Positions 20,266-23,036 of a stretch of 64,000 nucleotides of DNA are shown here, piece after piece (position 1 is the stretch's first letter; each line of letters opens with the position of its first letter). The notes beneath the pieces were generated by a model that was not told the origin of the DNA, searched no databases, and saw only the letters and a program-made list of their open reading frames with translations. Source of the stretch: Escherichia coli (GTDB lineage Bacteria > Pseudomonadota > Gammaproteobacteria > Enterobacterales > Enterobacteriaceae); NCBI RefSeq assembly GCF_001677475.2, contig NZ_CP015229.1; one strand, 5' to 3'. The position numbers and the translations under genes were made by a program.

Positions 20266-20541
20266 TCACCCAATAACATTGAGATTGCAGATTGTTTTAC
20301 TTTTACAGCTTTCATCCCCCCATTGTTGGGCAAACATTGGGAGAGTCAGAGCACGAAAGTTAATACCACGTTCGCACAGCTCCTCCAACAGCACGGCAAG
20401 ATGCCGCATACTGCGCCCCAGTCGGTTCAGTTTCCAGACAACCAGTACGTCCCCTACCGATAATGTCCTGAGCCGTTTGTTCTGTCCGGGTCTGCTGCCA
20501 CGGTTATGCGCTGAAGTGGTAACTCTGAGCACGCAGTTCAT
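20266..20541 (-). pseudogene. pinH: Serine recombinase (resolvase/invertase) fragment, pinH-like remnant
   Basis: 91-aa ORF whose C-terminal part (GDVLVVWKLNRLGRSMRHLAVLLEELCERGINFRALT) matches the middle of resolvase catalytic domains, with no intact N-terminal catalytic serine region or C-terminal HTH; position matches K-12 pinH. Confidence 0.5.
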
Positions 20542-20892
20542 CAGTCAGGCGTGGTACACCGTAACCCTATTATTGATGAGTAATATCAAAAAAACTTTCA
20601 GGCAGCTAAGGAAAGTTGAACCAGACATTAGATGAAATATTTCAACCCATTACAGCACCAATTCAGACCCCGCCAGCTCACCAAATAAATCAAGGGGTTA
20701 CGTGAAAGCGTAGCCCCTTTTTCTTTGGTAGTAGCAAAATGGTTGTAGTGTGAAGGATAATTCCGTTTAATCAGTCAACAATATATATTATTTCAATCTA
20801 CGTTATTATCTCTTTTAAAAATAGCCATTTATTTATCATTGAAAACTGCTTTTAGAACTTGATACAAGGGGACTAGTCACAACAGGACTATT

Positions 20893-22035
20893 CTAAACGG
20901 GATCATCCTCAGAAGAACTATCATCAAAGTCATCATCCATAAATAAAATATCATCGAATGGTGCCACGCCCGTGATGAGTTTTATTTTATTATTACGATC
21001 AGTCAAGACTCCACTTAAACCGTTTTCGCTCACAGGTTTTAATGATTTTTCATTACTCTTGTTGTAAGCAGGCGCATTAAAAATACACGGAGTATCAAGA
21101 TCAAACAATGACGTTCCCCAGTTCACATATTGAATATCATAGTTACTGAAGTTCTGTCCAGAAAAGAAGCATCCCTTAAAATCCAATCCACCTAAATTAT
21201 ATAAACCATCCTCTTCTTTTTGGAGAGTAATGTTAATTCTGGCTATCTCTCGAACATCATCGCCATTTTTATATTTGAATATCGTTTCAAGATTTTTCCC
21301 AGACAGCTTGACTTCCGGGAATAATTTGAAATTAAACCCTACATTATTATGTGTCAACGTAGATGAACAAAAGATGGAAAAAGCTTGCAGTGCTGAATTA
21401 TAGCTTTCGATTTTATCCTGAGGCTGCGCTCTTGGTAAAAACGTATAGCAGCATTCATAAAAATCAAGTAGAAACTCTGAAGACCTTCCATTTTTATCAA
21501 ATAATATCCCCTTGAACTCATTCACAAACGCATCCGTTATTTTTTGAATATCTATGGGGTGTTCCTTTGACTCTGATAAAGATGAAACCTCATCTATTTT
21601 GTTTTCATATGAATTACGTGGTTCCATACAGACATTTGGCGGCATTTCTAAAATAACACTATTCATACTACCTGGCTTAAGTGAGCCAACATGAAAATCA
21701 CTTTTTCTTATATTGTCGAATAGGGTCTGTTCATTTCTTTTAGCGGATTGAAAAAACTGATCAACATTATTTTTATTCGATGAAAGGTCAGTTTCAGAAA
21801 CCGCATTTTCTTTGTTCTCCAGCTTTAGTTTAATGAGAAGATCTTCCCACACCGTTTTTTTCAAAAATACTACGTCAGGCTCACCATCAGCAACTAACTC
21901 TTGATTATTACCAAAGTGTACGTTGTATACTTTTAATTTATTTTCATTAACATCATATTTAATACGTTTTAATTGTTCTCCGGCTCCCATAATGACAAAA
22001 GCATTGCCTTCATGATATTTACTTTCAGACATCAT
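20893..22035 (-). CDS. Hypothetical protein (380 aa), AT-rich, acidic C-terminal tail
   Basis: Long ORF in a markedly AT-rich segment between the pinH fragment and tRNA ileY; possibly the intact counterpart of the K-12 ypjC region (not verified). Confidence 0.5.
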   Translation of the reverse strand: MMSESKYHEGNAFVIMGAGEQLKRIKYDVNENKLKVYNVHFGNNQELVADGEPDVVFLKKTVWEDLLIKLKLENKENAVSETDLSSNKNNVDQFFQSAKRNEQTLFDNIRKSDFHVGSLKPGSMNSVILEMPPNVCMEPRNSYENKIDEVSSLSESKEHPIDIQKITDAFVNEFKGILFDKNGRSSEFLLDFYECCYTFLPRAQPQDKIESYNSALQAFSIFCSSTLTHNNVGFNFKLFPEVKLSGKNLETIFKYKNGDDVREIARINITLQKEEDGLYNLGGLDFKGCFFSGQNFSNYDIQYVNWGTSLFDLDTPCIFNAPAYNKSNEKSLKPVSENGLSGVLTDRNNKIKLITGVAPFDDILFMDDDFDDSSSEDDPV

Positions 22036-22960
22036 TTTTTGTAAAATTTCAAGAGCACCGCGATACGTCCCTGAGGCAGCTTCCTTACAAATTAAATTTA
22101 TAATACTTTAAGCTAGTAGCTCCATGGGGTTGATAGAATTGTTTTCATTACAACTTCCACTACCCAAAACTGTATTAACGTTATGACCATTACTTTTACT
22201 AACTAACATTGTCTACTCCTCAGTTAATGTCTACATGGCTATTTTTAACGTTATTACTGTTTGTCACTATAAAAAATCGCTCATTTGAGACAATTGCTGG
22301 CATTAACTATTTCACTTGCTACGCATGGACTTTTTAATTAAATTAGCACAAGAATGTTAAATTTAATAAACAAAAGGTTATTTCGCTGTATGATAAAAAC
22401 CAACCGTTATAATTTATTAGTGAAAATCGTTTTTCGAGTGTTAGAAATTTATATCTAAATAGCGTTGATTAATGACCAAAGCCAGACTCCTGTAACGCTC
22501 ACAAGACTCTTCTGCATTCGACGGCGGTTCTAGTCAGTAGTAGATGTTTAAGGCGTGGCAGAGACATTTCATCCTTACTCTAAGGCATTGTTCTACATAC
22601 ATTGGTCGTGGTACTCACTCAGCATAAGTGAGCGAAAAGAGAATAGTTCAGTGATTTGAGTAATTAACCTGATTAAATGAAGGGGTATAATAAATGATAA
22701 TACTCTGGCTTTATCGTTAATTACTTAATTCCACATGTAAGCAATTTGCCCGCTTGGCATAGCGGGCATTTTTTCCAGGTACTTTTGAATGAGTACTGAT
22801 GGATAAATACATTGCAGTGGCGTGCCACGTACCAAAACACCAGCCCTCATTCGAAACCACCCACCACACTTCTTCCTTGAAATGGCGTTAGTCGTGAAAT
22901 ATAGACCGCCATCGAGTACCCCTTGTACCTTTAACTCTTCCTGATACGTGAATGCTGATA

Positions 22961-23036
22961 TGGTGGCCCTTGCTGGACTTGAACCAGCGACCAGGCGATT
23001 ATGAGTCGCCTGCTCTAACCACTGAGCTAAAGGGCC
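22961..23036 (-). tRNA. ileY: tRNA-Ile (anticodon CAU, lysidine-modified type)
   Basis: Reverse complement reads GGCCCTTTAGCTCAGTGGTTAGAGCAGGCGACTCATAATCGCCTGGTCGCTGGTTCAAGTCCAGCAAGGGCCACCA, a cloverleaf with CAT anticodon and encoded CCA. Confidence 0.85.

Follow-up and report, generated by a model that had tools for sequence, protein, structure and literature searches.

The interval 20266-23036 of a 64,000-nucleotide stretch of Escherichia coli DNA (the window) very probably represents an accessory segment already known from this species, ypjA / pinH' / ypjCB / ileY. The locus is already annotated, and the 380-aa open reading frame (ORF) that the first-pass annotation took for an intact gene is the remainder of a 438-aa gene, ypjCB, separated by a stop codon from the real 5' end of that gene. 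The order ypjA / pinH' / ORF / ileY is the same in the annotated homologous loci of K-12, EcPF15, O157 and other E. coli, in agreement with the placement between ypjA and tRNA-Ile(CAU) originally proposed. A sequencing artefact is ruled out, since three independent NCBI assemblies match positions 17893-25032 with 100 % identity. Within the interval, ileY is likely the only functional feature, and the importance of the locus beyond its correct annotation is slight. The features referred to below, in window coordinates, are:

15357-25972, no strand assigned: variable block of about 10.6 kb carrying ypjA, pinH', ypjCB, ileY and ygaQ, delimited by comparison with empty-site strains
15359-19924, minus strand: ypjA/ehaD, adhesin-like autotransporter gene, 50 % GC (ORF; homologous loci annotated YpjA/EhaD)
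20344-20505, minus strand: pinH', relic of a Pin/Hin-type DNA invertase, residues 38-91 of 184 (Pfam, PHROG, tblastn)
20692-20729, no strand assigned: hairpin between ypjCB and pinH', 12-bp stem and T-run (consensus match only, scored on the plus strand)
20893-22035, minus strand: residual 380-aa ORF of ypjCB, codons 59-438 and the TAG at 20893-20895 (ORF, family profiles)
22108-22209, minus strand: true 5' end of ypjCB, 33 codons from the ATG at 22207-22209, then TAA at 22108-22110 as codon 34 (same-frame reading)
22210-22640, no strand assigned: upstream spacer of ypjCB, 431 bp, AT-rich (35 % GC), with patchy, locally high divergence between strains
22216-22221, minus strand: Shine-Dalgarno motif GAGGAG, 6 nt upstream of the ypjCB start (direct sequence reading)
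22641-22960, no strand assigned: 3' flank of ileY, 320 bp, 40.6 % GC, of low diversity (1-6 % mean pairwise)
22961-23036, minus strand: tRNA-Ile(CAU), ileY (ARAGORN, annotation of homologous loci)

The interrupted ypjCB gene

The 380-aa ORF reaches 792 bits against NCBIfam NF050179 (Ecoli_YpjCB; cut-off 650), where it aligns with profile positions 59-454 of 465, and it also matches the Pfam families DUF5507 (positions 59-160 of 160, E 1.7e-47) and DUF5508 (positions 1-244 of 263, E 1.1e-159). It is flanked by the pinH relic and by ileY in the homologous loci inspected as well. As described at the outset, it is strongly AT-rich, with 34 % GC in a window of 48.5 %, and its tail is acidic, 10 of the last 22 residues being D or E. 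The gene is also rich in ATA codons (20.5 per 1000, compared with 0 in glaH).

The ORF is not intact. Its real start codon, the ATG at 22209, lies 174 nt further upstream, and the frame that leads from this MLVSK... start to the C-terminus without interruption in intact members of the family (438-492 aa) is broken in the window by the TAA at codon 34, to reopen at Met59, 72 nt downstream of the nonsense codon. This codon is CAT (His) in K-12 and EcPF15 and encodes Tyr in a related metagenomic fragment; it encodes His in the intact 438-aa sister alleles P0164, P0166 and P0167, and Tyr in P0124 and P0146. The nonsense allele is found with 100 % identity in at least three other assemblies, and the gene callers of other assemblies also split ypjCB, into 33 aa and 379 aa. 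A long open ORF is not equivalent to an intact gene. The same reading alters the picture of the sequence upstream, which had been described as about 900 bp of AT-rich DNA devoid of ORFs. While the 431-bp spacer fits this description, the first 174 bp (22036-22209) are the 5' end of ypjCB and the last 320 bp are not strongly AT-rich.

We infer that ypjCB of the window is a pseudogene or a truncated family member, in which the nonsense mutation has led to loss of function through ordinary gene decay. Ribosomes loading at the strong GAGGAG motif would synthesize a 33-aa peptide, and the downstream 380-aa ORF, devoid of a ribosome-binding site, would most likely be untranslated or poorly translated. 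Some protein could be produced by re-initiation at Met59/Met60 or by read-through of the stop codon. The hairpin at 20692-20729, which on the minus strand follows the ypjCB stop at a distance of about 175 nt, is a probable transcription terminator.

It is improbable that the 380-aa ORF instead encodes a functional, N-terminally shortened isoform of YpjCB starting at Met59, which would leave the gene effectively intact here. The nonsense allele is common to several isolates, few parts of the family vary more than the N-terminal 58 residues, and the 380 open codons keep the better-conserved C-terminal domain. However, the sequence ahead of the Met59 ATG (...GAAATTTTACAAAAA) is devoid of a Shine-Dalgarno motif, unlike that ahead of the true start with its GAGGAG, and the distance from the nonsense codon to Met59 is such that coupling would need long-range re-initiation. 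Moreover, the nearest alleles are full length (438 aa), and ypjCB has been inactivated again and again in other strains.

The lesions differ from strain to strain. The K-12 counterpart, correctly described as disrupted in the first-pass annotation, has a single nonsense mutation at codon 161, separating ypjC from ypjB; the window has Gln at this position and thus does not share the lesion. The genes of ETEC4088 and AF57 carry frameshifts and that of STO_Bone1B a deletion with IS3. In C10 and YJ6, as deduced from feature lists, an IS1 transposase is annotated under a two-piece ypjCB match, and in the C10 list two separate YpjCB annotations flank this transposase. Intact alleles also vary in length, from 438 aa in the sister alleles to 449 aa in O157, 457 aa in OkiPb01683 and 491 aa in EcPF15; other E. 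coli alleles range from 449 to 492 aa, and intact alleles of 484-492 aa are present on thousands of contigs. As judged from these comparisons, ypjCB is under weak constraint across the population, shows high polymorphism and has been destroyed time and again by different mutations. This is how a dispensable gene behaves on its way to being lost.

The variable block and the role of ileY

The truncated serine recombinase noticed initially is a genuine fragment. It is contained in a spurious 91-aa ORF (20266-20541, minus strand) that matches Pfam Resolvase over positions 43-100 of 145 (E 3.6e-11) and PHROG 125, annotated as "DNA invertase", and it shares 74 % identity with residues 38-91 of the 184-residue PinE (tblastn; pinE/hin). 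A tblastn search with full-length PinE in all frames of 19900-21000 yielded no further pieces. Both the region of the catalytic nucleophilic serine (about residue 10) and the C-terminal helix-turn-helix DNA-binding domain are missing. By its sequence, pinH' is a phage-type relic of 54 codons, incapable of recombining DNA. The pinH'-ypjCB interval as a whole is decaying DNA, probably of horizontal origin.

The neighbouring ypjA gene, which appears to be intact (about 1521 aa counted from the Met of MNRTSPHY...), is the left-hand gene of a variable block situated between the tmRNA gene ssrA and glaH. Some E. coli pass from ssrA to glaH within about 0.7 kb and lack ypjA, pinH', ypjCB, ileY and ygaQ all at once. 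FDAARGOS_1254 lacks the whole of 15357-25972 including ileY; about 0.33 kb of unrelated sequence separates ssrA from glaH in this strain. The 0.33-kb filler runs from the ssrA terminator to the upstream region of glaH and bears no similarity to the block. Since ileY is absent together with the block in the empty-site strain, ileY itself belongs to the variable segment that lies downstream of ssrA, rather than serving as its chromosomal anchor. No direct repeats were found at the block junctions, and a search for ssrA or ileY att remnants at its ends was equally negative. The annotation of the homologous loci inspected shows no integrase between ssrA/ypjA and glaH. The composition of the block is mosaic, with 50 % GC in ypjA, 51 % in pinH', 34 % in ypjCB and 38 % in ygaQ, which counts against an origin from a single element. 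The window also holds a present-day element integrated at ssrA, with its right att core at 15177-15196.

The tRNA at the right end of the interval is labelled tRNA-Met by ARAGORN because of its CAT anticodon; in homologous loci it carries the annotation tRNA-Ile (ileY in K-12). It is the sole credible Rfam match in 14000-27000 (E <= 0.1), with none in the spacer 22210-22640. The 320-bp flank at its 3' end contains a predicted promoter-like site (22664-22691) and a strong predicted intrinsic terminator (22747-22776), both on the plus strand. The two may delimit a small plus-strand RNA of about 80 nt (22698-22776), or the hairpin may merely serve as the terminator of ileY.

The locus had been interpreted as the decay of an older element inserted at ileY. 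Decaying foreign DNA is indeed present, in the form of a dead invertase and an AT-rich orphan gene, but insertion at ileY finds no confirmation, neither as an att repeat nor as an ileY gene at the empty site. It is unlikely that pinH' and the AT-rich ORF are the remains of one mobile element integrated in the ileY 3' end, even though pinH' is phage-derived and ypjCB compositionally foreign, and even though ileY is a real integration site elsewhere. In OkiPb01683, an integrase-bearing island (TcdA-TcdB-like) lies directly at the ileY 3' end, with the 3' 46 nt of the tRNA as att core and a displaced 46-nt copy of this fragment. In ETEC1749, an island with Cah and CbtA/YeeU abuts the ileY 3' end (read only to the end of the tRNA), and an "ileY-associated phage" has been reported in APEC O78 (PMC4313913). 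However, the OkiPb01683 island separates the tRNA from the conserved flank, leaving ypjCB outside, and in the window this low-diversity flank, not strongly AT-rich, parts ileY from the AT-rich DNA. A direct repeat of the ileY 3' end, which the first-pass annotation had proposed to look for and whose absence it would have counted against its own reading, does not occur in the window (probes of 18-32 nt with up to 3 mismatches; blastn-short of the whole tRNA); the other matches are chance 9- to 11-mers, the best being an 11-mer with E 0.81. Moreover, the composition of pinH' is strongly unlike that of ypjCB, the block lacks an annotated integrase in every locus inspected, and empty-site strains lack ileY as well as the rest of the block. 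Far-end repeat, integrase, abutment and a tRNA at the empty site are thus all wanting here, and for island calling a tRNA beside AT-rich DNA is insufficient to define a tRNA-integrated island.

Distribution, constraint and possible function of YpjCB

YpjCB is widespread in E. coli, unusually polymorphic and without detectable relatives outside Escherichia and Shigella; the best 120 matches with a named source all come from E. coli or Shigella. Among 1.84e9 representative proteins, phmmer retrieved one full-length YpjCB cluster plus fragments and no credible homologue outside the family. A 3960-aa MBG-repeat protein was rejected because 12 identical repeats inflate its E value (2e-4 per repeat in pairwise comparison), and an 808-aa protein (E 3.4e-4) was discarded as a chance or low-complexity match. 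The PDB gave no match, either by sequence or by profile. PHROG 30093 corresponds to this same family, which probably entered PHROG through prophage calls that extended too far. A scan of GTDB genomes with a single protein returned one locus, on a 2.8-kb contig of a "Planococcaceae" MAG; its ypjC and ypjB products are those of K-12 residue for residue with the same nonsense split, and it was set aside as probable contamination.

The N-terminus of YpjCB is Ser/Asn-rich, and neither a signal peptide nor a membrane segment is detected, as expected of a soluble protein. The C-terminal domain is better conserved and contains a short stretch with five-residue periodicity (7 pentads; score reached in 0 of 5000 shuffles in a post hoc test), with the acidic tail at its end. 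The dN/dS ratio of the gene is about 0.55 (range 0.28-0.86), the C-terminal third having about 0.36 and the remainder 0.73-0.81; that of the neighbouring ygaQ is 0.11-0.24. Divergence within the species is very high (dN 0.07-0.10, dS 0.12-0.21) and alleles are mosaic. Since dN/dS of the C-terminal part is below 1 and thousands of contigs carry intact alleles, the gene is, or was until recently, useful in some lineages, so that "junk" would be too strong a word for the family as a whole.

Structure and function searches gave little. AlphaFold2 models are unusable for the full-length family alignment (pLDDT 35.6) as well as for the C-terminal domain (39.4). PADLOC gave no match. Identity with pentapeptide or EspX effectors was dropped, as none of the Pfam Pentapeptide families matches even at E <= 10 and the best BLASTP alignment with the pentapeptide effector EspX1 has an E value of 1.9, i.e., no similarity; the periodicity alone remains. 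Two matches to Pfam PF20280 (CTD4, of ABC-3C conflict systems) are sub-threshold (18.4 and 14.2 bits for a cut-off of 27.6; E 0.0017 and 0.032), and no ABC-3C partner genes are annotated near ypjCB in homologous loci. In K-12, Hha, a partner of the silencer H-NS, binds the ileY/ypjC region (PMC2408971), and the ypjCB region may well be silenced by H-NS/Hha in the present strain. Biofilm of a K-12 ypjC mutant was more colonised by a pathogen (PMC3646849).

There is a small chance that YpjCB is an Escherichia-specific, rapidly diversifying protein of conflict or host interaction (type III substrate or anti-phage factor), with ancient alleles maintained by balancing selection and repeated loss where it is unneeded; if so, the periodic stretch and the weak CTD4 resemblance would be the first clues to its fold. 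Slimmer still are the prospects of the stronger view that ypjCB is a fast-evolving gene in actual use (as a secreted effector or anti-phage factor) under diversifying or balancing selection, its stops being recurrent adaptive losses: the high divergence with mosaic alleles, the Ser/Asn-rich N-terminus free of signal peptide and membrane segment, the post hoc periodicity, the sub-threshold CTD4 match and the K-12 biofilm phenotype speak for it, but dN/dS nowhere exceeds 1, the PADLOC, Pentapeptide and EspX1 comparisons are all negative, conserved adjoining partner genes are lacking, and independent inactivations in many strains are more simply explained by relaxed selection.

Comparison with known systems

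The ypjA-ygaQ block resembles ssrA-linked islands such as CP4-57 of K-12 in lying directly downstream of ssrA, but differs from them in having neither a second ssrA att copy nor an integrase. With the ileY islands of OkiPb01683, ETEC1749 and APEC O78 it shares the tRNA and the adjoining compositionally foreign DNA. However, the OkiPb01683 and ETEC1749 islands abut the tRNA 3' end, whereas ileY of the window is separated from the AT-rich DNA by the conserved 320-bp flank; the adjacent integrase and duplicated 46-nt tRNA fragment of OkiPb01683 are likewise absent. In comparison with intact Pin/Hin/Gin invertases (e.g., PinE of e14-like elements), the window keeps only 54 of 184 codons and has no adjacent invertible tail-fibre segment; its relic occupies the same position as K-12 pinH (b2648), an annotated pseudogene.

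The closest parallel is provided by ypjC (b2650) and ypjB (b2649) of K-12, a comparison already suggested in the first-pass annotation, which reveals the same locus, neighbours and reading frame with a different lesion. In a three-way alignment, nucleotide identity between K-12 and the window is 81-99 % per 100-nt window, and both lack a 105-nt segment that is present in EcPF15. K-12 is broken at codon 161 and the window at codon 34 instead. At the other end, ypjCB of the window stops 19 codons earlier than that of K-12, at a TAG shared with the intact 438-aa sister alleles.

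Layout of the locus

The features claimed between the autotransporter gene ypjA and tRNA-Ile(CAU) are all present, in the order annotated in K-12 and other E. coli, and every gene of the 20266-23036 interval lies on the minus strand:

15359-19924, minus strand: ypjA/ehaD autotransporter
20266-20541, minus strand: 91-aa ORF including the recombinase fragment (pinH')
20893-22035, minus strand: AT-rich 380-aa ORF
22961-23036, minus strand: ileY, tRNA(CAU)
23596-25848, plus strand: ygaQ, intact, 750 aa, on the opposite side of ileY and followed by glaH

The core genes lhgO, gabD and gabT (identity up to 97.9 % to complete E. 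coli genomes) assign the window to E. coli. The 3.5 kb of the finding diverge more than these genes (best match 95.3 %, mostly 90-95 %). Since 17893-25032 is found with 100 % identity in three NCBI draft assemblies, the sequence is real and common to a lineage.

Upstream of ypjA, positions 20100-20307 are 83-86 % identical to a ymgJ-adjacent region elsewhere in E. coli genomes, and one such match is listed with an autotransporter beta-barrel gene as well. Annotations of other strains place a conserved 39-aa ORF (“hypothetical protein”) at or just left of this segment (about 19992-20111 in the window). The ypjA and ymgJ loci may have a common regulatory leader. Elsewhere, at 56918-57684 on the minus strand, a tRNA-Ser(GCT) gene clusters with four for tRNA-Arg(ACG), in what looks like a usual tRNA operon of E. 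coli.

The pinH' relic and the broken ypjCB gene

The 91-aa ORF matches Pfam Resolvase (positions 43-100 of 145) and PHROG 125 “DNA invertase”, with 74-75 % identity to pinE and hin. Full-length PinE (184 aa) used in tblastn gave a single piece, residues 38-91 at 20344-20505, and no other in any frame. The reading as a truncated, pinH-like serine recombinase is thus borne out, these residues being its sole remnant. With neither the catalytic serine region nor the DNA-binding domain left, the fragment, counterpart of the K-12 pinH pseudogene, is a dead relic.

The first-pass annotation had taken the 380-aa ORF to be intact, which does not hold. The ORF scores 792 bits against NCBIfam NF050179, “YpjCB family” (cut-off 650), with the alignment limited to profile positions 59-454 of 465; Pfam matches are DUF5507 (positions 59-160) and DUF5508. 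Translation upstream in the same frame reads MLVSKSNGHN...MELLA, a stop, then SIINLICKEAAS...LQKMMSESKYHEG. The gene start is an ATG at 22207-22209, 6 nt 3' of GAGGAG, and codon 34 is TAA (22108-22110), where K-12 and EcPF15 have CAT and related fragments have Tyr. The reading frame resumes only at Met59, upstream of which no Shine-Dalgarno motif occurs in the sequence read. By exact look-up, the ORF's cluster includes intact 438-aa members with His34 (WP_213836116.1 and others). These carry the same early TAG, at a position where K-12 has GAG, so the 19-codon C-terminal shortening is a tolerated feature of the allele. Judged from the sequence, the codon-34 nonsense is predicted to be the disabling, lineage-specific event. 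Gene callers divide this allele in other assemblies into 33 aa + 379 aa. The K-12 counterpart was correctly described as disrupted: its ypjC/ypjB split results from a separate single nonsense at codon 161 that the window does not have (RNE*NLF versus RNEQTLF). The 380-aa ORF is therefore a pseudogene remnant, and its lesion is new but trivial.

Polymorphism of the YpjCB family

E. coli and Shigella commonly carry intact alleles, 438-492 aa long, and several of the clusters occur on hundreds of contigs each.

State of ypjCB in the inspected loci
Intact: EcPF15 (491 aa), OkiPb01683 (457 aa), O157:H7 TW14359 (449 aa)
Nonsense: K-12 (codon 161), window (codon 34)
Frameshift: ETEC4088, AF57
Deletion with IS3: STO_Bone1B
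IS1 transposase under a split match, inferred from the hit table: C10, YJ6

An in-frame segment of 105 nt or 35 codons (VSPVTKNSQQVKGHYGDKLKEMQMFLNQMGNALQQAP), carried by EcPF15-type alleles and missing from the window (site 21585/21586) and K-12, is a presence/absence polymorphism inside intact genes. Alleles differ from one another to an unusual degree (dN 0.07-0.10) and in a mosaic pattern. In pairwise comparisons, dN/dS ranges from 0.28 to 0.86 and averages about 0.55; the C-terminal third gives 0.36, the other parts 0.73-0.81. The neighbouring ygaQ, at 0.11-0.24, is under clear purifying selection.

HMMER against 1.84 billion representative proteins recovered a single full-length YpjCB cluster along with fragments, many of which come from frameshifts, and no homologue beyond the family. 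Searches of the PDB and with PADLOC gave no match, and the lone outside lead is a below-threshold match to Pfam CTD4 (ABC-3C). The protein has a Ser/Asn-rich N-terminus, an acidic tail and no hydrophobic segment; two AlphaFold2 attempts yielded no usable model (pLDDT 35.6 and 39.4). A post hoc test found seven successive pentads similar to pentapeptide repeats, but neither the Pfam Pentapeptide models nor the effector EspX1 match, and a pentapeptide/EspX-type protein was rejected. Intact YpjCB is thus an orphan, unusually polymorphic protein. In K-12, the ileY/ypjC region is a binding target of Hha, which influences the expression of ypjC (PMC2408971), and ypjC deletion slightly changes pathogen colonisation of biofilms (PMC3646849).

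A scan of GTDB genomes gave one locus, a 2.8-kb contig (DEQI01000374.1) of the MAG “Planococcaceae bacterium UBA3370”. Its products, YpjC of 160 aa and YpjB of 263 aa, are identical to those of K-12, codon-161 split included, which makes contamination by E. coli K-12 almost certain.

ileY and the variable block downstream of ssrA

The locus had been read as a likely remnant of an older element inserted at ileY. In the window, probes of 18-32 nt from the ileY 3' end (up to 3 mismatches) found no repeat beyond chance, and blastn-short with the whole tRNA gave chance-level matches only. FDAARGOS_1254 offers an empty site: what separates the ssrA terminator from the region upstream of glaH there is some 0.33 kb of unrelated, non-coding DNA, with no tRNA; the breakpoints correspond to 15357 and 25972. 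Loss of ileY through IS-mediated deletions is reported for E. coli W and B (PMC3032704). Of 5426 genomes, 2861 have 80 % or more of the 8.2-kb region in one piece; in a sample of 45 rows taken at even spacing from the hit ranking, about 10 show the glaH-proximal part only. GC content varies from part to part (ypjA 50 %, pinH' 51 %, ypjCB 34 %, ileY flank 41 %, ygaQ 38 %).

Several features of this surrounding sequence were also recorded. The alpha-amylase-like ygaQ, intact here, has 28 ATA codons per 1000 and weak Pfam alpha-amylase matches; K-12, O157 TW14359, ETEC4088 and others carry it as a pseudogene. The left end of the window, 1-15196, is taken up by an integrative element that carries genes for integrase, replicative helicase and SPFH-domain products. 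On the right it is bounded at 15177-15196 by 20 nt that repeat the 3' core of ssrA (CGGGTTCAACTCCCGCCAGC). The usual sequence downstream of ssrA comes next, terminator included; the ssrA gene falls outside the window, beyond its start. Within the low-diversity ileY flank and oriented towards ileY, a promoter-like TTAACC-16-TATAAT (22664-22691, plus strand) precedes a strong intrinsic terminator (22747-22776, plus strand; fold z-score -2.7). The pair, which has no Rfam match, could specify a transcript of about 80 nt or simply be the ileY terminator seen from the opposite strand. Between strains, ileY itself (window and comparison loci L001, L002 and L005-L008) varies in the anticodon-stem 3' strand and variable loop (CGCCTGG, CGCTTGG, CGTCCGG), pairing being preserved via G-U; island-borne att copies may have replaced the tRNA 3' half.

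Real insertions at ileY are seen in other strains. OkiPb01683 carries a tyrosine integrase and an island with TcdA/TcdB-like toxins beside a displaced 46-nt ileY 3' fragment. This fragment, which runs from anticodon loop to CCA, remains attached to the conserved flank and ypjCB; ypjCB thus lies outside that island. The Cah/CbtA-YeeU island of ETEC1749 directly adjoins the 3' end of the tRNA, and APEC O78 is reported to have an ileY-associated phage (PMC4313913). A single decayed ileY-integrated element fits neither the att, empty-site and composition evidence nor these islands. The missing att repeat, the contrasting insertions, the empty site without ileY and the mosaic GC content together show that ileY is one part of a variable, layered block on the downstream side of ssrA. 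The general idea of decay was right, then, and the model of insertion at ileY fails the test set for it. The interval is an already annotated, ordinary E. coli accessory locus, and its ileY neighbourhood looks different from the islands of OkiPb01683 and ETEC1749.
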